64,000 nucleotides of DNA from Escherichia phage QL01. Under the pieces are notes generated by a model that saw nothing but the letters and a program-made list of their open reading frames with translations, had not been told where the DNA came from and searched no databases. This document shows, piece by piece, positions 6,511 through 62,000 of this stretch. Made by a program: the position numbers and the translations under genes. The stretch is taken from sequence record NC_028847.1; one strand, written 5' to 3'. Numbering within the stretch: the stretch's first letter is position 1; the number at the start of each line of letters is the position of its first letter.

Positions 6511-6535
6511 ACCATAAATGGCTATACACACTAGA

Positions 6536-6703
6536 CTAAAGTAGTAATTGGGTTTCGTTCAGCTGTTCTTCAGTGTTTTCCGTAACCGGCAAGCTTTGAA
6601 CGTAATTATAGCATGAGCCCGGATGAACCGGACCTTTTTCTGTTTCAACAACCAATGCAGCATCGATTGGAGTTTTACAGACAACGCAAATCTTATCTGA
6701 CAT
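6536..6703 (-). CDS. Small Cys-rich protein in the uvsY.-2 position
   Basis: 55-aa ORF MSDKICVVCKTPIDAALVVETEKGPVHPGSCYNYVQ... with strong SD (AAGGAG); not in ORF track because under 60 aa. Confidence 0.5.
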   Translation of the reverse strand: MSDKICVVCKTPIDAALVVETEKGPVHPGSCYNYVQSLPVTENTEEQLNETQLLL

Positions 6704-6731
6704 GATTGTCTCCTTAGTTTAACTTACATAC

Positions 6732-6830
6732 CTATTTATTACTTGCTAAAGCAGCATTAATGAATTCTTGGAGAAGTTTCATCTTATCGGCATCTACTTT
6801 AATGGGTTTGGTATTTTTAGTACGTCTCAT
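6732..6830 (-). CDS. Possible 32-aa ORF in the uvsY.-1 position
   Basis: ATG overlaps uvsY stop (TAATG); MRRTKNTKPIKVDADKMKLLQEFINAALASNK; weak. Confidence 0.3.
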   Translation of the reverse strand: MRRTKNTKPIKVDADKMKLLQEFINAALASNK

Positions 6831-14938: not shown

Positions 14939-17061
14939 TACATTTTGAATTTATTTGATAAAGAAGAGATATCCAAAGACGCGGCAAGGATTTCCATAGC
15001 TTCGTTGCTTTCAGAAACGGATTCATTAACCAAGAATTGACTAAATCCATCCATCAGGCGAACTTCACCAGTTTCCATCAAATGGTCACCATCGTAAACA
15101 GATTCGCTGAGCTCTGAAGGAGGCGTTACGGTAGCTTCCATAAGGTATTTGTGAGATACTCTATCATTCATGGCAAAAGCCGCTACTTTATCAACCTTCA
15201 ACAATAATCCACGCGGAAGGATAATTTCTGCTTCTTCGGCATATTCTGTAAGGTCACCAGGAGCGATAACTTTAACTGCTTCAGCACCTCGAATAACCAT
15301 ACCAATTTCAGCAATTCTATCTGCAGGACCTTCAGGTGCAATTGGATTACCAAACTCGTCTTCTTCCCATTCTACCTCTTCGTCATCGACTTCACCCACA
15401 TCAGATGAACTACCACTAGCCAATTTAAACAACTCATCAGCGGAGGACAAAGAACCTTCACCACCAACAAAAACGGCTTGGTTGTCGAGGGCCATATAAT
15501 TTTTACCGAATTCACCAAAGATGTTAGGCTTTAATGAGGCTGACACAAAGTTCTTAAAGTAAAATGTTTTGTTATCGATATTATGGCGCAGAATTTTGTA
15601 TGGCAAATCCTGACCACGATACAAAATAGTACCCTTAGGAAGTTTAATACCCTTAGTAAATGCTGAGTCTAAATCCTTAATCAATTTAATAGCCGTTGTA
15701 TTGTTTTCGGATTCAGGTTTACCTAAAAGGAATAAGTTCATAGGAGCATATTCAGCCGCGCAATATTCAATAATAGCATTGCTTTCGTCTTTGGTTAGGT
15801 CCTTAGGTTTAATGAGCTCGCCTGAATAAGCATATGCATCACTAATAGAATCGTTAACCAGTTTATAAACGGCTTCCATAGCGAAAGCAATTCTAGATGC
15901 TTTCTCTGAAGGGGAACCCTTAAAACGGGTACTCAGGTTATTAACAATTTTCTTAATAATATCCAGACTATTGGTTGTATTGATTTGCGAAAGGCCACTT
16001 AAAAGTCTATCGACTTCTGTATTAAAAAATGCCATATTATTAGAGTAAATTTCAAACCCTTGTTTATCTCTATTAGCATAATTTAGTTTAAATTTACTAT
16101 CAGTCATTAAAGCGTGTGTGAGAGCAATAGTGTATCTAAAGTTGGCAAGGTCCTCGCTCTTAGATTTAAACTGAGAAGCCTGACGCATTTTAGTAATGGC
16201 ACCTTTTTTAAAGTTCTGACTAATCTGTTCAATACCTTCGTTCTCAGGGCCTTCAGCCGTGTGAACCGGTACAGAAGCTTCAAACTCGTTATAAACCTGC
16301 AATTCTTTAGGGGACAAAGTTTCAGGCTCAGCAGTAGAATACTGCGCGGCCGCAGCCATACGACGCGAAATCTTAGTACGAGAGATAACGGCCTTATCAG
16401 TACGTTTCTCTTCAACTTGTGCAATAGATGCCGCTACGGCTTCTACTTTACTTACGGCCTGGCCTGTTTTCTTAGAAACATACACTTCGCCAACTTTAGA
16501 CTCAACTTTAGTATAAAGATCGGCATTAATTTCAGGCATACCCTTGATATCTTCAATATTAGCACCGCGACGTACTAAAAGAACGTAGGTATGTTTTCCG
16601 CTGAATTGGAACATGTCGTCAACAACTTTAAACTTACCACCGGTACGAGCCATAGCCAAACGAGCTAATACGCGCTGAACGGTAGGACCTTTACCTTTCA
16701 TTTTCTTAGTAGGGAAACGGAATAAAACCGCGTCCATTTTAAGTTTGATTATTTGTTCATATATGGTATCGAAAATGGTGTTCAGTGTACCGAGTGGATC
16801 GGTACCCAAACCACCCTTGAGTTCTGCCGGAGCGCCTTTAGCAGATAAACTCATTAAGATAACATGGACGTACTTATCGCCATTTTTAACCATCTTAATA
16901 GCGTCGCCTTCGGACGCATAAGATACCATACGTGCTACTAAATTGTCATTACCAGGAGCATGTACCGCAAAAATCTGCGGTACGCCTGAGCCAGGTTTAA
17001 GATTTGTTACCGGATAGTTTTTAGCGGAATCGCTATCAAAAACTTCGTTTAAATTTTCCAT
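14938..17061 (-). CDS. alt: Alt-like ADP-ribosyltransferase paralogue A (707 aa)
   Basis: Conserved ~230-aa N-terminal domain with LNE near N-terminus; C-terminal R-S-E motifs (LYRGQ, FVSASL, EAEIILPRG); acidic insertion in catalytic domain. Confidence 0.85.
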   Translation of the reverse strand: MENLNEVFDSDSAKNYPVTNLKPGSGVPQIFAVHAPGNDNLVARMVSYASEGDAIKMVKNGDKYVHVILMSLSAKGAPAELKGGLGTDPLGTLNTIFDTIYEQIIKLKMDAVLFRFPTKKMKGKGPTVQRVLARLAMARTGGKFKVVDDMFQFSGKHTYVLLVRRGANIEDIKGMPEINADLYTKVESKVGEVYVSKKTGQAVSKVEAVAASIAQVEEKRTDKAVISRTKISRRMAAAAQYSTAEPETLSPKELQVYNEFEASVPVHTAEGPENEGIEQISQNFKKGAITKMRQASQFKSKSEDLANFRYTIALTHALMTDSKFKLNYANRDKQGFEIYSNNMAFFNTEVDRLLSGLSQINTTNSLDIIKKIVNNLSTRFKGSPSEKASRIAFAMEAVYKLVNDSISDAYAYSGELIKPKDLTKDESNAIIEYCAAEYAPMNLFLLGKPESENNTTAIKLIKDLDSAFTKGIKLPKGTILYRGQDLPYKILRHNIDNKTFYFKNFVSASLKPNIFGEFGKNYMALDNQAVFVGGEGSLSSADELFKLASGSSSDVGEVDDEEVEWEEDEFGNPIAPEGPADRIAEIGMVIRGAEAVKVIAPGDLTEYAEEAEIILPRGLLLKVDKVAAFAMNDRVSHKYLMEATVTPPSELSESVYDGDHLMETGEVRLMDGFSQFLVNESVSESNEAMEILAASLDISSLSNKFKM

Positions 17062-17064
17062 TAT

Positions 17065-19110
17065 TTACCCTTGGATGAATTTTTCTGGCGTTTCGTCAAA
17101 ATTAATACATGAAGCTAAAATAGGCATTATATCCACCTTGGTCGATTTGACGAATGAATCAAAAGACACAGGGTTGTCGGTCTCTGTTTCTACGCCTTGG
17201 TAAACAACCAATTCGCCGGTTTCCATCAATGCATCACCATCATAGATAACCGCATTTTCTGCTAGTTGGTCTGTGGTCTGGATATCAGCTTCCAATAATT
17301 TGGTGTTGTAGTTTCCTTTATATGAGGCATCTGTAATTTTAGTAATCTTAACAGTAGTTCCACGTGGAAGAATAACCTCTTGTTCTGTTGGAGAACCTGA
17401 CAATTTACCTGGCACAATTACGTTAATAGAGTCTGCACCGGAAATTTTCCAACCGATGTTCATCATTGTATTTTCGGAACTCGTCAGCATACTTGGAAGA
17501 ACAATTTCATTATCGCCTTGGAAAGATGTCCCAGCGCGATAGTCCTGATGAACTGCGGCCATTGCGACGTTTGATACCCAGCCGCCAAAGATAATCGGCT
17601 TAAGGGACGTTGATACATAGTTCCTGAAATAAAACAATTTTGAGTGTTTGATTTTATCAAAAGTGTTAACATTTAAATATTGACCACGCCAAAGTGTAAT
17701 ATCAGGTGGCAATTTATGGCCAATTTCAAATGCTGCATCCATATCATTAATTACTTCAATTACACGATAACTATCAATAAATTCTGCATCCTCTTCATAA
17801 TAATTACCCAACAAATAATTATTAACATCGGTATAATATTGGCCACAATAAGAAGAAATAGCCTCACGCTGCTCATACTCAAATCGATTATCGCTATAAC
17901 TGGCTGTAAAATGCATAACACTTTCTGACGCTTCATTAGCAAAGTCGGTAACAGCAGCACTTATACGTTGAGCATACTCTTGTTCCCAAAGCTCTGCTGC
18001 ATATTCTGCCGCATCCATATTAGGAGGAGCCTCATTCATTTTTCTTTCAATAAATGCAGCTTTGCGAAGGTTAAGAACCTCTGCACATGATTCGGCAAAA
18101 ATCTGCATCTGCTTCATACTGCCGACAGGAGCACGTTTAAGTTCACGATGCATACGGTTAAAAATTGGGTCAGAGTCTTCGACTCGAATTTCTTCTTTCC
18201 AAACACCGTTTGCTCGCATAGCCATATCTGCCGCGCGCATACGCTCCATAGTATTCGTTTCAGAAGGTTGAATAAAAATTTCTAGTTCTTCATAATCATC
18301 GATAAGTTCCGCTGTTGCTGGGGCACTAAATTTTGATGCCTCTGCATCAATCTCATTCCAACCTTCCGGAACTTCATCTCGAGGAGAATACTGGGCTGCG
18401 GCTACAGCACGCCTAGAAATCTTAGTAGTAGTAATAACGGCCTTATCCGTACGTTTTTCTTCGACTGCCGCTATACTAGCAGATAGTGCTTCTATTTTGG
18501 TTACCGATTGGCCTGTTTTCTTGGATACATAAACCTCACCAACTTTAGACTCAACCTTAGTGTAAAGGTCTGCATCAATTTCAGGCATACCTTTTATGTC
18601 CTCAATATTAGCTTGTTTACGGACCAGTAAAACGTATGTATGTTTGCCTGTAAATTGATACATATCATCGACAACTTTAAACTTGCCGCCAGTACGAGCC
18701 ATCGCCAAACGTGCCAATACACGTTGAACAGTAGGACCCTTACCTTTCATTTTCTTGGTAGGGAACCGGAAAAGAACTGCATCCATTTTAAGTTTGTTTA
18801 CTTGTTCGTATACAGTATCAAAAATGGTATTCAGCGTACCAAGTGGGTCAGAACCTAACCCACCTTTCAACTCGGCTGGGCTACCCTTAGCAGACAAACT
18901 CATCAAAATAACATGAACATATTTGTCGCCCGGCTTAACCATTTTAATAGCGTCTCCTTGAGACGCATAAGATACCATACGAGCAACCAGATTATCATTA
19001 CCTGGTGCTTGGATAGAGAAAATCTGTGGAATACCGGAACCCGGTTTAAGATTTGTTACTGGATAGTTTTTAGCGGAATCACTATCAAAAACCTCATTTA
19101 AATTTTCCAT
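17065..19110 (-). CDS. alt: Alt-like ADP-ribosyltransferase paralogue B (681 aa)
   Basis: N-terminal ~230 aa nearly identical to A; divergent middle; ART motifs LWRGQ, YVSTSL, EQEVILPRG. Confidence 0.85.
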   Translation of the reverse strand: MENLNEVFDSDSAKNYPVTNLKPGSGIPQIFSIQAPGNDNLVARMVSYASQGDAIKMVKPGDKYVHVILMSLSAKGSPAELKGGLGSDPLGTLNTIFDTVYEQVNKLKMDAVLFRFPTKKMKGKGPTVQRVLARLAMARTGGKFKVVDDMYQFTGKHTYVLLVRKQANIEDIKGMPEIDADLYTKVESKVGEVYVSKKTGQSVTKIEALSASIAAVEEKRTDKAVITTTKISRRAVAAAQYSPRDEVPEGWNEIDAEASKFSAPATAELIDDYEELEIFIQPSETNTMERMRAADMAMRANGVWKEEIRVEDSDPIFNRMHRELKRAPVGSMKQMQIFAESCAEVLNLRKAAFIERKMNEAPPNMDAAEYAAELWEQEYAQRISAAVTDFANEASESVMHFTASYSDNRFEYEQREAISSYCGQYYTDVNNYLLGNYYEEDAEFIDSYRVIEVINDMDAAFEIGHKLPPDITLWRGQYLNVNTFDKIKHSKLFYFRNYVSTSLKPIIFGGWVSNVAMAAVHQDYRAGTSFQGDNEIVLPSMLTSSENTMMNIGWKISGADSINVIVPGKLSGSPTEQEVILPRGTTVKITKITDASYKGNYNTKLLEADIQTTDQLAENAVIYDGDALMETGELVVYQGVETETDNPVSFDSFVKSTKVDIMPILASCINFDETPEKFIQG

Positions 19111-19113
19111 TAT

Positions 19114-21198
19114 TTACCCTTGGATGAATTTTTCTGGGATGTCATAGAGGTCTATGCATGAAGCCAAAAGAGGCAGTACATCAAACCGTGTAGATTTAAC
19201 AAATGAATCAAAAGATAAGGGGCTTTCGGAAGTATCGAAGTCATCTTGATATACGACCAACTCGCCGGTTTCCATTAGTACATCACCATCATATACCACA
19301 GATTCTTGAAGCTCATCTGTTGTCATAACTTCAGCTTGAATGAGTTTTGTATTACTAGATGTTGTTCCATCATTATTAGAAGCATCTGTTATTTTATTAA
19401 CTTTGACCATTAATCCACGCGGTAGAATAACTTCGGCTTCAGTTGCTATTCCGAGATTTCCTGGATATACGACATTAACTTTATGGGCCCCATCAATAGC
19501 CCATCCTATTTGAACTTTAACATAATCAGGATTTTCTTTATATGCTCTTATTTCATTAGGATTAATAGTTATTCCTTCTTCATTTTTATCGACTGTCAAT
19601 TCATTGCGAACTTCAGGTTCTAAAAGACCGATACCAGCGTGCGTAACACCAAAACGTCCGAAAATTATAGGGGTCAATGAAGTGGATACAAAATTTCTAA
19701 AATAAAACACTTTATTTTTAACTAGTGCTTCGTATATAGGAGCAGTCATACTCTGGGCACGATAAACTGTGATGCCCTCTGGTATACGGTCGCCATTTTC
19801 AAAAGCAGAATCCAAATTATTAACTGCAGATTCGATATCTTTTTCGCTCATAACCTCATAGTTCTGAGGATTATAACGTCCTAAAAGAAGATTATTTATG
19901 TCTGTATATCCTGAACCACAATATTCTCTGATACCACGCTTTTGTGATGGAGTATATTTAGAACCCTCACGAGCAATAGTAATATCGACCATAATACCGC
20001 CACCTACACCAGCAAAACTATACACGCGTTTTTTAATGAACTTGGTCTTGGCCGCTTTCCACTTGGCCTCTGTCAATTCGTTCCAAAGGTCATCAGGTTG
20101 GCCTTTACGGGTTCTGTTATGAATAGCCAGCCACTCGCCTTTGTATTCTTCGAAAATGGTATTAATAGTAGAGGCATATTTTTCTAGGGCTTTAACAGAT
20201 GTCAAAGGTTCGTTTTTGATGGCCGTAAGGATTTTCTCTTTAATTTTCTCTTGGATTTCGCCAATACCGTGAAGTGGGAACAATTTGTAATCGTAATGCA
20301 ATTCTTCAGCAGTGCCTTCAGCCACTATATTAGCAACCTTATTTTTAGCCGCAGGAGAATTGTTATTAGTAACCATTTCCTGAGCCTCAGGGATTAATGG
20401 AACTGTTGCCGGTTTATTAAAATCTACTGCAGTAGCTTCATATTTCTTAAACAGCTCACTTTCATTACGATAAGATTCTAACGATTGACTTGCTGCAATG
20501 GCACGTCGAGAAATCTTAGTCTTGGTTATAACCATTTTATCAGTGCGACGTTCTTCAACCTTAGCAATACTACCGGCAATAGCAGTTTCTTTAGTAACCT
20601 GCATGCCTTCTTTTTTGGAAATATAAACTTCGCCGACATCAGAATCTACCTTAGTATACAATTCAGCATTAATTCCAGGCATACCTTTGATATCTTCTAT
20701 ATCAGCTTGTTTACGAACTACCAGGATGTAAGTATGTTTACCGGTAAATTGGTACATAGCCGGAACTACTTTAAAACGTCCACCTGTTTTCTGTGCTACC
20801 AAACGTTGGATAATCCGTTGAACGATAGGGCCTTGACCTTTCATTTTCTTAGTAGGGAAACGGAACATCACGGCATCCATACGAAGCTTTTTAACTTGGT
20901 CATAAACCACATCAAAAATAGTATTAATCGCATCTACGGGAGTAGGGCCTAGGCCACCTTTAAGTTCGGCAGGCGAACCTTTAGCTGAAAGGCTCATAAG
21001 GATAACGTGGGCATATTTATCACCCATCTTAACCTGTTTAATAGCATCACCTTCAGAAGCGTAGGATACCATACGCGCCACTAATTGGGATTCTGCGTCA
21101 CCAATCTTCCAAATCTGGGGTACTTTAAGTTTTGGGTTCAAGTTTACTGTAGGCAGTGTGCCTTCGGACTCAAACACTTCATTTAATTGTTCGGTCAT
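19114..21198 (-). CDS. alt: Alt-like ADP-ribosyltransferase paralogue C (694 aa)
   Basis: Same architecture; ART motifs VYRAQ, FVSTSL, EAEVILPRG; C-terminal tail shared with B (SFDSFVKST...PEKFIQG). Confidence 0.85.
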   Translation of the reverse strand: MTEQLNEVFESEGTLPTVNLNPKLKVPQIWKIGDAESQLVARMVSYASEGDAIKQVKMGDKYAHVILMSLSAKGSPAELKGGLGPTPVDAINTIFDVVYDQVKKLRMDAVMFRFPTKKMKGQGPIVQRIIQRLVAQKTGGRFKVVPAMYQFTGKHTYILVVRKQADIEDIKGMPGINAELYTKVDSDVGEVYISKKEGMQVTKETAIAGSIAKVEERRTDKMVITKTKISRRAIAASQSLESYRNESELFKKYEATAVDFNKPATVPLIPEAQEMVTNNNSPAAKNKVANIVAEGTAEELHYDYKLFPLHGIGEIQEKIKEKILTAIKNEPLTSVKALEKYASTINTIFEEYKGEWLAIHNRTRKGQPDDLWNELTEAKWKAAKTKFIKKRVYSFAGVGGGIMVDITIAREGSKYTPSQKRGIREYCGSGYTDINNLLLGRYNPQNYEVMSEKDIESAVNNLDSAFENGDRIPEGITVYRAQSMTAPIYEALVKNKVFYFRNFVSTSLTPIIFGRFGVTHAGIGLLEPEVRNELTVDKNEEGITINPNEIRAYKENPDYVKVQIGWAIDGAHKVNVVYPGNLGIATEAEVILPRGLMVKVNKITDASNNDGTTSSNTKLIQAEVMTTDELQESVVYDGDVLMETGELVVYQDDFDTSESPLSFDSFVKSTRFDVLPLLASCIDLYDIPEKFIQG

Positions 21199-25380: not shown

Positions 25381-25746
25381 TTAGATGTCGAATTCATTCA
25401 GAACTACATCAAAGATTGCTTCCAGGTGTTCAGGTTTAGCTCGGTTGCTCAGGATGTGACGAATCCAAGTTTTAACCAGAAGCTTACGATTAACACCGTT
25501 CCAGCAAGGATGGGTACCTAAATCACGTTGACGGAAATCATCATCTAAAGCGATTTTAAAAGTAGAACCTTCCATTGTGATTGAAACCGTAATACCATTT
25601 TCAAAGCGCATATAAACGTAGTTAGGAGTCATGCACTGTTCGATTTCGCACACCGCGCCGTTGTTGTGTTTCCACAGGCAAATAACTTCAGAAGAACCAG
25701 CGATACCGTTAGAAACATATTTACGTTCGAAGTTGATGTAGTTCAT
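25381..25746 (-). CDS. Hypothetical protein
   Basis: 121-aa ORF; SD GGAGAATAAA; preceded by promoter/stem-loop cassette. Confidence 0.55.
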   Translation of the reverse strand: MNYINFERKYVSNGIAGSSEVICLWKHNNGAVCEIEQCMTPNYVYMRFENGITVSITMEGSTFKIALDDDFRQRDLGTHPCWNGVNRKLLVKTWIRHILSNRAKPEHLEAIFDVVLNEFDI

Positions 25747-25776
25747 TTTATTCTCCAGTTTGTTTTCGTATTATTT

Positions 25777-25817
25777 GGTACAGGTCTATAATAACACAAC
25801 CTGTACCAAAGTAAAAC
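25777..25817 (-). promoter_or_regulatory. Promoter-early-stem-loop (PeSL)-like cassette
   Basis: 9-bp inverted repeat GGTACAGGT/ACCTGTACC whose loop carries a -10-like TATTAT, with GTTTTAC -35-like element 17 nt upstream. Confidence 0.45.
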
Positions 25818-25819
25818 AT

Positions 25820-26152
25820 TTATTTCACAACATTCCAATTTTTCATATCAAGTTTACCAACTTTTTTCATCTGAGCAATCAGACGTTCAGCACGTGTACG
25901 GGCATTAACATAATAGAATTCACCATTTTTGTTTTCTTCAATACGACCAGTAATTACAGTTTTCAGTTCATAAATCCAACCTGTAAAGAAGTTGTGAAGC
26001 TCGATGGTGAATGTAAAATCAGTACCCATACCTTCAGTTGTTTCAACTTCGATGATATCACCTTCAACTGCAGTCAGGACCCACATGGTTTCTTGATATT
26101 CACCGTTGAAACATTTAGCTTTAACAGATGCATTCAGATTTACAGTTTTCAT
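25820..26152 (-). CDS. Hypothetical protein
   Basis: 110-aa ORF; 5' leader nearly identical to that of the gene at 25381..25746. Confidence 0.55.
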   Translation of the reverse strand: MKTVNLNASVKAKCFNGEYQETMWVLTAVEGDIIEVETTEGMGTDFTFTIELHNFFTGWIYELKTVITGRIEENKNGEFYYVNARTRAERLIAQMKKVGKLDMKNWNVVK

Positions 26153-26193
26153 TTTATTCTCCAGTTTGTTTTAGTATTATTTGGTACATGTCT

Positions 26194-26222
26194 ATAGTAT
26201 CATGCCTACCGGAGATGTACAC
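26194..26222 (-). promoter_or_regulatory. Early-type promoter (GTGTAC, 17 nt, TACTAT)
   Basis: Spacing matches T4 early promoters; directly downstream of a terminator hairpin. Confidence 0.45.
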
Positions 26223-26244
26223 CCTTTTTTAAAGATTTAGAAAC

Positions 26245-26270
26245 AAAAATGGGACTCCGAAGAGTCCCAT
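26245..26270 (-). terminator. Rho-independent terminator after the 53-aa basic-protein gene
   Basis: GGGACTC-CGAA-GAGTCCC; minus strand hairpin followed by AUUUUUGUUU. Confidence 0.6.
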
Positions 26271-26273
26271 AAC

Positions 26274-26435
26274 TTATGCCTGAGGCTTACCAAAGCAAGC
26301 AGCATCTGCACGCAATACTGCACGAGCACGAGCTTGAAGCTTATCAACTACCTGATTGATACGCTTGTTGGACGCACGCTTGTAACCAGCGCGTTTAGAG
26401 GTACCGTCAACTACTTTAACTTCTTTCTTAGCCAT
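26274..26435 (-). CDS. Small highly basic protein (53 aa)
   Basis: MAKKEVKVVDGTSKRAGYKRASNKRINQVVDKLQARARAVLRADAACFGKPQA; own promoter, long leader and terminator; under 60 aa so absent from ORF track. Confidence 0.5.
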   Translation of the reverse strand: MAKKEVKVVDGTSKRAGYKRASNKRINQVVDKLQARARAVLRADAACFGKPQA

Positions 26436-26590
26436 TTTAAATCTCTTAAATTAGGATGCAGGACTTATTGGCGTTGCCTGCGCAAGCCCTCAAGGGGAAC
26501 ATAGGTTTCGGATATTTAACGACAGGATAACCATAAACCTCGTCATCATACCAACCACGACTTAGACAGATAACCTTTTTCTGACGCGTG

Positions 26591-26609
26591 ATAGTACAAA
26601 ATACATTCA
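26591..26609 (-). promoter_or_regulatory. Early-type promoter (GTGTAC, 17 nt, TACTAT) heading a ~150-nt leader for the 53-aa gene
   Basis: Same hexamers and spacing as the promoter at 26194-26222. Confidence 0.4.
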
Positions 26610-26697
26610 AGAGGTACACCGTAAAACTGTTGGGGTCTTAAAACTATAATGATTCGCAAATCATTAATCAAACAGTTCGACGGCTCCTCGATTTAAC

Positions 26698-26946
26698 TTA
26701 CTTCAGGGTAATAATAAAATGACGTACTGCTTTACGAGCTGCTGAAGCCAAAGGCTTAGCAAATTTCAGTTCATCTTTAGCTTCCAGTTCAGCAGCCAGA
26801 GTAGCCTGAGCAGGATTCAGATGTTTGAAATAACGCAGGATTTCCAGTGCTTCGGCCTCAACATCAATAGATGCGCCGTAGTTTTCGTGACCGTTGTTCC
26901 AAGCGTTGCGTTGCAGTTCAAGAGCGTGATTCAATTGTTTGTTCAT
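26698..26946 (-). CDS. rIII: rIII lysis-inhibition accessory protein
   Basis: 82 aa (T4 rIII is 82 aa); immediately upstream of gene 31 as in T4; sequence not independently recalled. Confidence 0.55.
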   Translation of the reverse strand: MNKQLNHALELQRNAWNNGHENYGASIDVEAEALEILRYFKHLNPAQATLAAELEAKDELKFAKPLASAARKAVRHFIITLK

Positions 26947-27092
26947 TTTAGTTTCTCAATTCGAGATAAAGATTGGTGGACACGTTCTTCTGAATTTCAC
27001 TTCCTTTCGGCAAGTCTCTCAGTTGTAGTCCACCGCTTAGGATTCTCCGGTTAACTAACTAGTCCGGCAGCCAATCCATATTATTATTTATA

Positions 27093-27416
27093 TCACTTAT
27101 AAAGGCAAGGAATAGCTTTATAGTGACAGGTAACGAATTTTTGTTTAATTTCTTTAGGTTGTTTAATACCCAATGCAACCAACGGATGAGGCACGTTAGC
27201 AATCTTACCAACAGGAAGTGGAGTCAAATCGCCTACTTCACAAAAATCTTCAGGGACATCAGGTCCTACAGAATAAATTTCACAAAGTTCAGGGATTTCA
27301 CCTTGATGAAGTTTGCCAATAACGATACCAGATGCAGTAGTTTCTTCATCACCGGCTTGTTTTGGTTCGGAAACGAGAATAACATATTCTCCGACCGCTT
27401 TAATAGGAAGTTCCAT
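27093..27416 (-). CDS. 31: Co-chaperonin gp31 (GroES-like)
   Basis: 107 aa (T4 gp31 is 111 aa); GroES-like N-terminus; position. Confidence 0.8.
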
Positions 27417-33262: not shown

Positions 33263-33292
33263 TTTGTTTTCTCCTCATTAGTTGGTAAGTCT

Positions 33293-33321
33293 ATACTAAC
33301 ACGTCATGAGGAGATGTAAAC
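33293..33321 (-). promoter_or_regulatory. Early-type promoter (GTTTAC, 17 nt, TAGTAT) upstream of alc
   Basis: Canonical spacing. Confidence 0.45.
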
Positions 33322-34469
33322 TACTCTACCACAATTTCTTTCAAATATTTTTCAGGGATTTGGGCCTTATGATTTTTCAAGAACACAGAGTTAATCTGGT
33401 CCATGACCGTATCATAATTAATACCGCCTACGTACGCCTGCATAAGAATAGAGAACAACCCTGGGAAGTCCTTAAGGATTAGCTGTCCAGTAACGGCATA
33501 GTCTTTACGGTCGCGACCTTTGAGTTGAGAGTAAGCTGCTTCTAACAAGGCTAATGATTGTTCTAGGTAATCTAAATGGATGCGTTCAAAGGCATCGATT
33601 TTCTCGATAGCAAAGGAATCTGTACTGAACAGACCACGAAGGTCATCAGTTCCACCAGCCACTACAACTTCAAACAAACGTTCGTTGTTGTTAATGGAAT
33701 CTTTGGTATGATGCAGTGCACTGTACCAGGCGGTTTTGAGTTTAAAGAACGTACCATCTTTCAGTACAAAGATGAAACCTTCAATACCTTCTTGTTTACG
33801 GATGTTTTCTACGAAATCACCTTCAGCGAGGTCATAGCTTTCAACCAAATGCTTACGCAGGGCCCCATCTTTAAACAATTCAGCATACGGAATATATTCA
33901 CCTGTTTCATTATTACGAACGTTTAACAGGATGAGGTTTGTTTCTTGGTAAGCCAGCACGATACGGTTGGTAGGTGCTACATATTCAAGGTTGCAGGTAT
34001 ACCCAGCTTTGGTGATTTCTTCTAGACGTGCGGCAAAAGCCTCGTTCTCAGGGAGACGAAGGAACCGTAAAGAATCATGCACCATTGATGAATGGATAGA
34101 GCCTTTAGATTTAACAGAAAGATACTGTCGGTCCATGAATGTAGAAATCAGAGAACCATCTTCCTTAGCCATTACGAGGTCGATATTTTCTGGCGACAAA
34201 TCCAGACCGATAGTCATAGGGTTTTCGTCGAGGTTAAAGAACTTTTGCATAGGACGAGCGGCAATACGTACAGGACCTTTCTCGTCCATTTCAAACATAA
34301 TGCCTCGGCACTCTAGTGCGCCGTCTTCCAACCAATCACTGTATGATGCGTAGTTATAACTAAAGATGCGATAGTTGACTCCTAGAGCACTCTGAAAGTC
34401 TTTAAAGAAGAACTTAGATTTAGTCGAGTTTTTAACCAGGGCCATCAAGTTATCATATAATTCAATCAT
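33321..34469 (-). CDS. rnlA: RNA ligase 1
   Basis: 382 aa; RIFSYNYASYSDW..ALECRGIMFEMD matches recalled T4 Rnl1. Confidence 0.9.
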   Translation of the reverse strand: MIELYDNLMALVKNSTKSKFFFKDFQSALGVNYRIFSYNYASYSDWLEDGALECRGIMFEMDEKGPVRIAARPMQKFFNLDENPMTIGLDLSPENIDLVMAKEDGSLISTFMDRQYLSVKSKGSIHSSMVHDSLRFLRLPENEAFAARLEEITKAGYTCNLEYVAPTNRIVLAYQETNLILLNVRNNETGEYIPYAELFKDGALRKHLVESYDLAEGDFVENIRKQEGIEGFIFVLKDGTFFKLKTAWYSALHHTKDSINNNERLFEVVVAGGTDDLRGLFSTDSFAIEKIDAFERIHLDYLEQSLALLEAAYSQLKGRDRKDYAVTGQLILKDFPGLFSILMQAYVGGINYDTVMDQINSVFLKNHKAQIPEKYLKEIVVE

Positions 34470-40501: not shown

Positions 40502-40521
40502 TTTATTCTCCTTAGTTGATA

Positions 40522-40556
40522 AGGCTATAGTATCACTACCATAGCCTGGTGTAAAC
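40522..40556 (-). promoter_or_regulatory. PeSL-like cassette (GTTTAC, 18 nt, TACTAT; AGGCTAT/ATAGCCT stem)
   Basis: Early promoter hexamers with inverted repeat spanning the -10. Confidence 0.45.
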
Positions 40557-40784
40557 TTATTTTTGAATTAAGCCCATATAAAATTTAGCGTCTTCCGGGT
40601 GCATACCGTCACAATACTCGTCAGCCATAAAGCGGGTAAGGTCTTCAAGAGGACCTTGGACTTCAATTTGCATACTACAGAATTGGGTATCTTTAATATG
40701 GGTCATAACTAAAGAAGGATAACGATTACGGATAACTTCGTAAGTGTATTCAAAATCAACGATATCAATATTAACCTTAGCCAT
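40557..40784 (-). CDS. Hypothetical protein
   Basis: Start at internal ATG after SD GAGGAAAATAAA; 75 aa. Confidence 0.5.
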
Positions 40785-40816
40785 TTTATTTTCCTCACTC
40801 ATTAGTTGATAGGTCT

Positions 40817-40845
40817 ATAGTATCATGTTTAAAGGCATTGTAAAC
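40817..40845 (-). promoter_or_regulatory. Early-type promoter (GTTTAC, 17 nt, TACTAT)
   Basis: Shares the conserved AGACCTATCAACTAATGAG leader with other copies. Confidence 0.5.
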
Positions 40846-40847
40846 AC

Positions 40848-41108
40848 TTATTTTTGAATTTTATCAAGCCATTTACCAAGCTTAATCATTTCTTTGGTAG
40901 CTTTTTCCATACTTCTAAATTTAACCAGTAAAGGTTGGGCATCAACACCCATAACTAAGGTGGTTACAAGACTATGTTCACCTACAAGCCATAATGAATA
41001 AGTTTGGATATCGAGCCCGTAATTTCGGTCTTTATGAACTCGTACACCCATCACTTCAAATTTCTCACTGGCTTTTTCTACTGCATCCAGGAAATCATCT
41101 TTAGTCAT
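40848..41108 (-). CDS. Hypothetical protein
   Basis: Track ORF begins at TTG; internal ATG with SD AAGG just after upstream stop; 86 aa. Confidence 0.45.
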   Translation of the reverse strand: MTKDDFLDAVEKASEKFEVMGVRVHKDRNYGLDIQTYSLWLVGEHSLVTTLVMGVDAQPLLVKFRSMEKATKEMIKLGKWLDKIQK

Positions 41109-41499: not shown

Positions 41500-41529
41500 T
41501 TTTATTTCCTCATGTAGTTGATAGGGCCT

Positions 41530-41558
41530 ATAGTATCATGTTTAAAGGCGTTGTAAAC
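41530..41558 (-). promoter_or_regulatory. Early-type promoter (GTTTAC, 17 nt, TACTAT)
   Basis: Near-identical to the cassette at 40817-40845. Confidence 0.5.
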
Positions 41559-41610
41559 CATTAAATGCCAAAAAGGGAAGACCGAAGTCTTCCCATTATA
41601 AATCAATAAC

Positions 41611-55897: not shown

Positions 55898-55938
55898 AAT
55901 ATTCTCTTCAATTCAGTACGTCATTATCTGATAGGGCT

Positions 55939-55967
55939 ATACTAACATATCCTTAGGGATTGTAAAC
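55939..55967 (-). promoter_or_regulatory. Early promoter for asiA (GTTTAC, 17 nt, TAGTAT)
   Basis: Canonical spacing; -35 overlaps end of upstream small ORF. Confidence 0.5.
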
Positions 55968-56111
55968 ATGTCCTTCGTTCTTTTTAACATATTCTTGATA
56001 CATCTCTTCTATTGGTTCCTGGAACTTAAAATCAGCTCCCAGGAATTCCTCAAAGCACTCCTGATCACGCGTACGCATGCCTGTTACGGTATTCTCTAAG
56101 TTATGACTCAT
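55953..56111 (-). CDS. Possible small ORF (52 aa)
   Basis: MSHNLENTVTGMRTRDQECFEEFLGADFKFQEPIEEMYQEYVKKNEGHVYNP; under 60 aa; no strong SD. Confidence 0.3.
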   Translation of the reverse strand: MSHNLENTVTGMRTRDQECFEEFLGADFKFQEPIEEMYQEYVKKNEGHVYNP

Positions 56112-56200
56112 AGCCTTTACCCTTATGTTTCTGTTTACGTTTAGACTCTTTAAAGTTTTTCTTCTTATCCTTATGGACAGAAGCCTTATTGAAATCGTGC

Positions 56201-58094: not shown

Positions 58095-58128
58095 TTTAAT
58101 CTCCGATAACCATTTATTTGATAGGTCT

Positions 58129-58157
58129 ATAGTACCATGTTTAAAGCAGAAGTAAAC
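58129..58157 (-). promoter_or_regulatory. Early promoter for motA (GTTTAC, 17 nt, TACTAT)
   Basis: Canonical T4 early promoter spacing. Confidence 0.5.
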
Positions 58158-58174
58158 TCTTTTTGCACTAAACC

Positions 58175-58200
58175 CAAAAAAGGAACCCGAAGGTTCCTTA
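58175..58200 (-). terminator. Rho-independent terminator after gene 52 and the small membrane ORF
   Basis: AGGAACC-CGAA-GGTTCCT; minus-strand hairpin followed by UUUUUU. Confidence 0.6.
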
Positions 58201-58302
58201 CTTTTTAAAGTTGGCTGCTATTAAACCTATAGCTAAGCCTGTCGCCAGGCCTAGGATAACAGCAAAGATACAGAGTAACAAGAACTCGACTCCAAGGCTC
58301 AT
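58198..58302 (-). CDS. Possible 34-aa hydrophobic peptide
   Basis: ATGA overlap with gene 52 stop; MSLGVEFLLLCIFAVILGLATGLAIGLIAANFKK. Confidence 0.4.
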   Translation of the reverse strand: MSLGVEFLLLCIFAVILGLATGLAIGLIAANFKK

Positions 58303-61108: not shown

Positions 61109-61374
61109 AATATTTTCCTCAGAAGTTAAAGAATACACGTACATGGTCAATCATAAAAACGATTGGGAAAATGCTCAATACCATTAACAACACAAACATG
61201 TTCCAAATTGCTTTAAGTAAGTTTTTCATAATCATCTCCATTAGTTGATAGGTCTATAATATCATGATTAATGGAGATGTATACTGATTTATGCCAATTT
61301 CCACAACAATAAACTAAAACATACGCAAATCACTGGGATACAGGCCATCCAAATAAGGCACCACATTTTGCTAC

Positions 61375-61925: not shown

Positions 61926-62000
61926 AATATTTTCCTCTCGTGTAGTTGATAGGAAGATAGTAACACCATCCATGGCGTATGTAAATACTATTTTAAAAAT

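Follow-up and report, generated by a model that had tools for sequence, protein, structure and literature searches.

The DNA considered here is a stretch of 64,000 nucleotides (nt) from Escherichia phage QL01 (NC_028847.1), referred to below as the window; it comes from a T4-like phage of the genus Dhakavirus and falls into the Bp7/IME281 group at about 99.9% identity. The minus strand carries the genes of the region, including gp31 (27093-27416). Among them are rIII, an 82-amino-acid (aa) frame in the open reading frame (ORF) list at 26698-26946 with its stop codon at 26700-26698, and a 53-aa gene for a basic protein at 26274-26435, which the annotations of Bp7, JS98 and T4 identify as the homolog of T4 gene 30.9. 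Our subject is the 262-nt spacer that separates them (26436-26697, minus strand, as are all features below unless another strand is given). The equivalent spacer measures 244 nt in T4 and 352 nt in JS98, so that these phages share a long untranslated stretch between the two genes, and the spacer is recognisable in 774 phage records; a 951-nt query around it matched IME540, vB_EcoM_FB, IME281, Bp7 and WG01 at 99.4-99.9% identity. On balance we favour the view that the interval is a non-coding, cis-acting regulatory spacer built of independent nucleic-acid modules, and not a gene.

The spacers of 18, and later of about 45, related loci (cited below by L-number) were aligned. In the direction of transcription the window contains the modules A, X, C1 and C2, the last consisting of the hairpins C2a and C2b. 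Identity to T4 is 98% for A, 92% for C1 and 98% for C2, against 84% for rIII, 80% for gp31 and 73% for 30.9. Since the interval has no credible ORF, is conserved above its coding neighbours and contains stems maintained by compensatory changes, it is very unlikely to be junk. No other copies of A, X, C1 or C2 exist in the 64 kb, and the spacer has no match in E. coli genomes. A search of Rfam gave no match at gathering score in the window and only a chance-level one (E=4) in this region. In 10 related loci Rfam likewise found nothing in the rIII-30.9 spacer, the sole match at E<=1 being Atu_C8 (E=0.012, below gathering score) at the end of T4 gene 30.9.

Module A (26611-26689) starts 9 nt past the rIII stop codon and is an imperfect stem-loop of 79 nt, with 25 bp in helices of 4, 5, 8 and 8 bp. 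Its folding free energy in RNAfold is -23.9 kcal/mol (z-score -3.58), and none of 200 shuffled sequences folded as well. Among 12 distinct sequences of the module, 99% of the cells are paired, and five pairs have two-sided compensatory changes, compared with 0 of 500 shuffles; sliding the partners against each other cuts the pairing to 25-63%. The earlier note on this DNA had pointed to a hairpin right after rIII, and this hairpin (UAAUGAUU-UGCG-AAUCAUUA, 26647-26666) is real, being the tip of the larger stem-loop. Its loop varies between UGCG, UGAG and UGUG with the stem kept, L008 has compensatory stem changes, and the module contains two invariant G-U pairs. Stem-loop A would form in any transcript reading out of rIII, and on such read-through RNA it may act in processing or stability, either as the target of a double-strand-specific ribonuclease (RNase) or as a protector of the 3' end of the rIII message. 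It is more plausibly an intercistronic structure of this kind than a terminator. The early mRNA of phage T7 is processed at intercistronic RNase III hairpins, and A resembles these in being irregular, in having at least 20 bp with internal loops, and in lying between two cistrons of one transcript; a reliance on RNase III in the maturation of mRNA is, however, not known from T4-type phages.

Between A and C1 lies a junction that exists in three allelic forms with the same flanks: it is empty in T4, holds cassette X in the window, and holds a different cassette, B, in JS98, VR5 and many others. The X and B alleles are both found among Dhakaviruses that are at least 94% identical, and the A-C1 junction is thus a recombination cassette site. 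X (26551-26597) is 47 nt long and contains a small hairpin at 26585-26565 with the stem CAGA/UCUG, which becomes CAGC/GCUG in L011 and L034. It is 98-100% identical in ATK47 and L017, and L034 has part of it (93% identity over 56% of X).

Cassette B is an RNA of ~135 nt with at least five helices (L002:1945-2084 in JS98; L021:1867-1999). It occurs once per genome in 407 phage records, at 90% identity or more in most, from phages of Klebsiella, Escherichia, Enterobacter, Shigella, Yersinia, Citrobacter, Serratia, Edwardsiella and other hosts, and at every locus examined it sits in the rIII-30.9 spacer. RNAalifold gives B 42 pairs, 15 of them with compensatory changes. In addition, the 6-nt loops of two of its hairpins are perfectly complementary in all 18 distinct sequences, in four different versions (CGAUGG/CCAUCG, UGAUGG/CCAUCA, CUAUGG/CCAUAG and CAAUGA/UCAUUG), which, as judged from these sequences, is a covarying kissing loop of 6 bp. 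None of the records listed annotates B as RNA; some call ORFs over it, and 1-nt insertions or deletions (indels) in L022 and L025 speak against these. B has no match in Rfam, an exact-match search of the bacterial and archaeal genome collection with a conserved 20-nt stretch of it returned nothing, ARAGORN found no transfer RNA (tRNA) or transfer-messenger RNA in six related loci that contain B, nor in the window, and our literature search found no paper describing the RNA of this interval, its transcript map, or B.

A covariance model (R1) made from 15 sequences of B scores 103-172 bits for the divergent members JS98, L023 and L039. In the window spacer it has no match, the best one nearby (<=10 bits, E 0.26) lying inside 30.9; therefore B is absent from the window, and X is no detectable remnant of it. 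The idea that X is a decayed B, suggested by a MAFFT alignment, was rejected for the same reason; X instead shares homology with one part of an L034 hairpin. R1 also found no match in the T4 loci tested. These included rnaC and rnaD (species 1 and 2), the only small non-tRNA RNAs annotated in T4, which lie in the tRNA cluster and whose function is given as unknown (PMC3014915), so a relationship of B to these two was dropped as well. In several B-carrying phages (such as L040) the cassette starts 12 nt after the rIII stop codon, and B must consequently be transcribed there by read-through.

Module C1 (26504-26550) shows strong covariation. It consists of a hairpin, GACgAGG/CCUGUC at 26544-26521 with the 11-nt loop UUUAUGGUUAU, and of a conserved tail, GUUAAAUAUCCGAAACC (26520-26504). 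Across 21 distinct sequences, 87.9% of the cells are paired and 23 cells are changed on both sides, giving stems such as GAC/GUC, GUG/CAC, GUC/GAC and GGC/GCC, among others; several pairs are G-U. The covariation score is 0.475, compared with 0.154 in shuffles (0 of 500 reached the observed value) and 0.12 or less when the partners are slid. A second covariance model, R2, has C1 as its sole match in the window (69.8 bits, E 1e-14). C1 occurs in nearly every long spacer, in any module order, across genera whose rIII proteins are as little as ~65% identical, and this persistence together with the conserved tail fits a recognition site; the hairpin plus the conserved single-stranded GUUAAAUAUCC could be bound by a protein or an RNase. 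Another hairpin module, Z (GGUGAUUCGCUACCUUAGUGCGGCUAG), is absent from the window and was seen in T4 (L004:1170-1205), L005, L021 (1840-1870) and L020; its stems covary (CAC/GUG, CGC/GCG, UGC/GCA), its 9-nt loop is conserved, and its position in the spacer varies by genus.

The cassette polymorphism raises the question of whether the interval is mostly a recombination scar, in which leftover promoter and stem-loop cassettes are kept alike through frequent homologous exchange and only the promoter has a function. Module order is indeed permuted between genera, a single junction has three alleles, X resembles a partial duplicate of C1 with GGUUAUC(C)UGUC present twice, and shuffling mediated by promoter-early stem-loop (PeSL) cassettes is documented in T4-type phages (PMC2839356). 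We nonetheless consider a scar rather unlikely: compensatory changes maintain the pairing of the A and C1 stems, C1 recurs across distant genera as described above, and the modules exceed the adjacent coding DNA in conservation within an interval found in 774 records.

An element acting as DNA, whether as a replication-origin repeat, as the target of a recombination or homing enzyme, or as a cruciform, appears highly improbable to us. Module A is a long inverted repeat in DNA, in the ATK47 record 10 nt immediately ahead of 30.9 carry the label 'ori type 2 repeat', and the existence of exchangeable cassettes would fit targeted recombination. The G-U pairs in the stems of A and C1, however, pair in RNA of the transcribed strand and not in the complementary strand, no homing endonuclease gene is annotated nearby in Bp7, JS98 or T4, and iterons or repeats were not found. 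We know of no T4 replication origin at the position between rIII and 30.9.

The last part of the spacer, in front of 30.9, is C2. C2a (26487-26497) is a G+C-rich hairpin, CCC(C)-UUGA-GGG, followed by a conserved CUUGCG, and is present in almost all relatives at varying positions in the spacer. C2b (26458-26481) has the stem GCAGG/CCUGC and a conserved 14-nt loop, CAACGCCAAUAAGU, and lies 10 nt upstream of the Shine-Dalgarno sequence. Variants of its stem occur at the same position, namely ACUGG/CCAGU in L041 and L020 and GCGGG/CCUGC in L018, and other genera have unrelated stems there (GGGAGC/GCUCCC, GAGAGGU/ACCUCUC and GGCUCUA/UAGAGCUC). For X-type leaders RNAalifold also proposes a structure in which the C2b loop and its 3' arm, GCCAAUAAGUCCU, pair with the Shine-Dalgarno-AUG region of 30.9 and thereby exclude the C2b hairpin; a CUCC...GGAAG arrangement is found at the same place in more distant relatives. 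This modelled alternative suggests translational control, in which C2b could switch between its hairpin and the pairing with the ribosome-binding region. That region (26433-26447, read from the sequence) has AAGAGA at 26447-26442 ahead of the ATG at 26435-26433 and is a weak ribosome-binding site. Autoregulation of gp30.9 through its leader is possible.

The earlier note had placed an early-type promoter in the spacer, and a T4-type early promoter candidate is found exactly there (26591-26619), with the -35 element GTGTAC at 26619-26614, a 17-nt gap, and the -10 element TACTAT at 26596-26591. The pattern GTKTAC-N17-TAYTAT has five matches in the window, all on the minus (transcribed) strand, where shuffled sequences would give 0.08. 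The -35 lies inside the 3' arm of module A and the -10 hexamer is contributed by cassette X. The predicted start near 26584 would give the proposed 5' leader of ~150 nt, which would carry the hairpins of X, C1, C2a and C2b ahead of the weak ribosome-binding site; these hairpins would set the stability and translation of 30.9. The -10 is absent from T4 and JS98-type (B-type) phages, and the promoter is accordingly not the reason why the interval is conserved.

The promoter in the spacer belongs to a repeated early-promoter family, D3/D4. Nine T4-type early promoters were noted on the minus strand, with the consensus GTTTAC-N17-TACTATAGACC and TGA before it, and the family sites are 26179-26229, 33278-33328, 40512-40562, 40802-40852, 41515-41565, 55924-55974, 58114-58164, 61241-61291 and 61942-61992. 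One member of the family drives 30.8, just downstream of the 30.9 terminator. Three further candidate signals in the spacer were discarded. A second sigma-70-like site in A, TTGATT-17-TATAGT, has CTGATT as its -35 in all relatives outside the near-identical group of the window and is thus not conserved; a MotA-box middle promoter at GGCTTGCG has, by eye, an unfit box and an unfit spacing to the -10; and the sole GGAG that could serve as a RegB site (26688-26685) lies in the stem of A and lacks, on its 3' side, the A-rich stretch of the GGAGRAYARAA consensus (PMC3014915).

The 53-aa gene has its own terminator, as had been proposed: a canonical intrinsic terminator follows 30.9 at 26244-26270, with a hairpin at 26270-26249 (9-bp stem, five G-C pairs) and a T run, and an equivalent site exists in T4 and L034. 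Between rIII and 30.9 no terminator-like site was found in the window, T4 or L034. Because the sole canonical terminator follows 30.9, we infer that rIII and 30.9 are co-transcribed. Promoters upstream would yield this joint message, and the internal early promoter would add a second, shorter 30.9 mRNA in X-type phages.

These data also bear on whether the interval encodes a trans-acting small RNA (sRNA); the earlier note had suggested that the leader could contain a small RNA. Such an RNA would span ~125 nt from the early promoter (near 26584) to C2b, would target host or phage mRNAs, and would leave 30.9 to be expressed by read-through only. It would have a promoter of its own with a good match, T4 and ATK47 have AUUUUCAUUU right after C2b, the modules are more conserved than the genes, and the single-stranded GUUAAAUAUCC as well as the C2b loop (CAAYGYCAAUAAGU in consensus) are conserved and could be seed regions. 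However, scoring gave no terminator-like site here in either the window or T4, so that nothing upstream of 30.9 defines a separate small RNA, and the U tract is degraded in the window to AUCCUAAUUU. T4 and JS98-type phages, moreover, retain C1 and C2 but not the promoter -10, the last hairpin lies as close to the 30.9 Shine-Dalgarno sequence as a leader hairpin would, and a search of E. coli genomes found neither a host homolog nor a target. Both the sRNA and the host or phage targets attributed to it therefore seem unlikely to us. The broader proposal of a structured regulatory RNA holds in part: compensated structure is present in A and C1, but the interval has no Rfam family and the leader, taken in its entirety, is no more stably folded than shuffled sequence.

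The proposal that the interval is non-coding was borne out, with a correction. No ORF in it is credible, but the earlier note's statement that none exceeds ~20 codons does not hold, since the mechanical ORF list contains frames of 57 aa (GTG start, 26446-26619), 41 aa (TTG start, 26546-26671), 56 aa (TTG start, plus strand, overlapping 30.9) and 22-24 aa. None of the spacer ORFs has an ATG start with a Shine-Dalgarno sequence, and none matches a Pfam or PHROG family. Compared with the window, T4 and ATK47 have 1-nt indels inside the spacer frames, within C1. Three 1-nt indels in T4 break the 57-aa frame, which differs in every relative; the 41-aa frame has a stop codon in L017, and its TTG start exists only in the near-identical Dhakavirus group of the window. 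The ORF content of the spacer thus varies from phage to phage, and the 57-, 41- and 18-aa frames and a 24-aa frame on the plus strand were all rejected as genes on the grounds of indels, stops, lost starts, missing Shine-Dalgarno sequences and lack of families. Nor do the relatives carry a coding gene in this interval, which would have told against a leader; many have the structured cassette B instead.

It is very unlikely, in our view, that the interval is a small protein gene or encodes a leader peptide, for which the candidates are the 57-aa GTG frame and an 18-aa upstream frame, MFPLRACAGNANKSCILI (26502-26446), whose end lies 10 nt ahead of the 30.9 ATG and which might couple translation. 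Most of the Dhakavirus, Mosigvirus and Tequatrovirus sequences examined have the 18-aa frame intact, its substitutions are few and by hand count about half of them are synonymous, and some genome records annotate ORFs in the interval. Yet the sequence upstream of it is GAAACCUAUG, with no Shine-Dalgarno sequence, and L015 (ACG), L041 and L020 (both AAG) have lost its start codon while keeping the hairpins that it overlaps. The non-synonymous changes are exactly those that preserve stem pairing (GAC/GUC to GUG/CAC), and neither this frame nor the others in the spacer matches a family; taken together, no conserved open frame with a start codon and a ribosome-binding site was found. Public records contain 'hypothetical protein' calls over the spacer or over B, for example L003:1952-2128 (CLB_P2) and L070:685-816 (Roth01). 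Such calls, present in many phage records, are probably spurious, and the locus can serve as a warning for annotators.

The closest described concept for a non-coding, cis-acting spacer of this kind is, by analogy, the PeSL cassette of T4-type phages, together with its T-even analogs at internal-protein loci (Arbiol et al. 2010, PMC2839356; Comeau et al. 2014, PMC4122927). An early sigma-70-type promoter lies in an intergenic region of the window, and stem-loop A overlaps it, its 3' arm holding the -35, so that A and the promoter would form a PeSL-like composite. The composite follows the stop codon of one gene and precedes the Shine-Dalgarno sequence of the next, a small one of unknown function, and cassettes are gained, lost or replaced between close relatives (empty, X or B) at identical junctions. 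The differences are also evident. The 25-bp stem of A is A+U-rich and not terminator-like, the promoter is separated from the gene by about 150 nt with further conserved hairpins, and the exchanged cassette is the RNA B or the 47-nt X and not an ORF.

Two other comparisons concern the leader. The T4 gene 32 mRNA has a long structured 5' leader that is stabilising and contains an autoregulatory pseudoknot. The 30.9 leader is similar in being a long, untranslated, structured leader in a T4-type early or middle transcript, with a gene for a small nucleic-acid-binding-like protein downstream, and in its conservation across the T-even phages; there is, however, no sequence or Rfam relation, and 30.9 can occur leaderless (L030). 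Riboswitches and ribosomal-protein leaders share with the spacer a conserved, covarying structure before the ribosome-binding site and a possible alternative pairing that could hide the Shine-Dalgarno-AUG region, and relatives have a multi-helix B RNA with a tertiary kissing loop in the leader. In the window, by contrast, there are separate simple hairpins in place of a multi-helix aptamer with its expression platform, there is no terminator, and the Shine-Dalgarno sequence of 30.9 is unpaired in the minimum-energy fold. Moreover, 30.9 implies no ligand, Rfam gives no match, and B is dispensable among close relatives. A review of post-transcriptional control in T4 (PMC3014915) states that neither a riboswitch nor a trans-acting RNA had been characterised in this phage.

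A bolder extension of our preferred reading can be offered, although only tentatively. The spacer might be the home of an undescribed phage riboregulator system, in which C1, its tail and the terminal hairpin control gp30.9 and B is a ligand- or protein-sensing RNA. The control unit might then, on equally tentative grounds, be bound by gp30.9 itself or by an RNase. If this were true, no riboswitch-like or functional non-coding RNA would have been characterised in T4-type phages before B, and the window would represent a natural allele of the system that lacks B and has X.

Several observations weigh against the view that the interval is a cis-acting regulatory spacer of independent modules. 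The promoter -10 is missing from T4 and from the B-type relatives, as noted. The fold of the C1-C2 leader is no more stable than that of shuffled sequence (z -0.2 to -1.2); for the ~150-nt leader as a whole z is about -0.2, and the entire gap is not significant either. C2a has one compensatory variant (CCUC/GAGG in L025) and is otherwise almost invariant, making it a weak test of covariation, and the formal covariation of C2b is also weak, with one covarying pair, a result reached by 19 of 500 shuffles. Some relatives have no leader, 30.9 beginning just 9 nt downstream of rIII (L030), and hence 30.9 does not need these modules. As for A, it has no U tract and is therefore unlike a canonical, PeSL-type terminator, and no terminator-like site was scored in the gap. 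PeSL motifs are repeated, whereas A is single-copy; the promoter part does recur, but A, X, C1 and C2 each occur once in the 64 kb. Recent recombination, and not selection, could account for part of the very high identity that A and C2 show across genera. Finally, the regulatory function of the spacer is inferred, and the processing, stabilisation and translational control proposed for it are putative.

The neighbourhood of the spacer can be summarised as follows. The rIII product matches PHROG 1457 (lysis inhibition accessory protein), and the gene is labelled rIII in the Bp7, JS98 and T4 records. Early, middle and late promoters are reported for rIII (PMC9409239), and the same source cites work of 2003 on the expression of rIII and 30.9 (Driukas and Nivinskas, Biologija). 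The gp30.9 homolog falls into PHROG 1427, of the category unknown function. It has 41 homologs, all hypothetical, and the source-named ones are all from T4-like phages, so on the evidence of these sequences it is a small basic protein confined to that group. It has no Pfam or PDB match, and an AlphaFold2 model shows two helices at low confidence (mean predicted local distance difference test score, pLDDT, 70).

Counting as non-coding any sequence outside an ORF of at least 60 aa, the 64 kb contain eight stretches of at least 100 nt, the longest of which (26198-26697) includes the 53-aa gene. The other seven measure 314, 255, 224, 204, 193, 114 and 103 nt, and since these are mostly shorter, the 262-nt spacer is among the longest non-coding stretches. 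Those of 200-314 nt lie at 6516-6829, 55946-56200, 58095-58298 and 61151-61374, and early promoter copies are present in at least the last three. The 146-nt spacer between gp31 and rIII (26947-27092) contains the late-promoter motif TATAAATA at 27092-27085 and long-range inverted repeats (GGUGGAC...GUCCACC and GGAUU...AAUCC), and is 81-93% identical to relatives. A 55-nt direct repeat with 93% identity (25742-25796 and 26148-26202) represents a promoter-plus-leader segment duplicated before 30.7 and 30.8. Further away, three tandem paralogous units of ~2 kb at 16333-21081 form the repeat families D1 and D2 (67-81% identity), with the D1/D2 repeats spaced 2049 and 2094 nt apart.

On our preferred reading the spacer in the window is a composite of a cis-acting leader and an intercistronic element, and the newer lead is the B RNA together with the cassette site in relatives. 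T4 and its relatives are among the best-studied viruses, yet this unannotated interval is more constrained than the genes around it. For experimenters it offers a defined, non-essential-looking locus with natural allelic controls (empty, X and B) and specific stems to mutate, and its A-C1 junction marks a place where these phages swap RNA cassettes, including a complex kissing-loop RNA.

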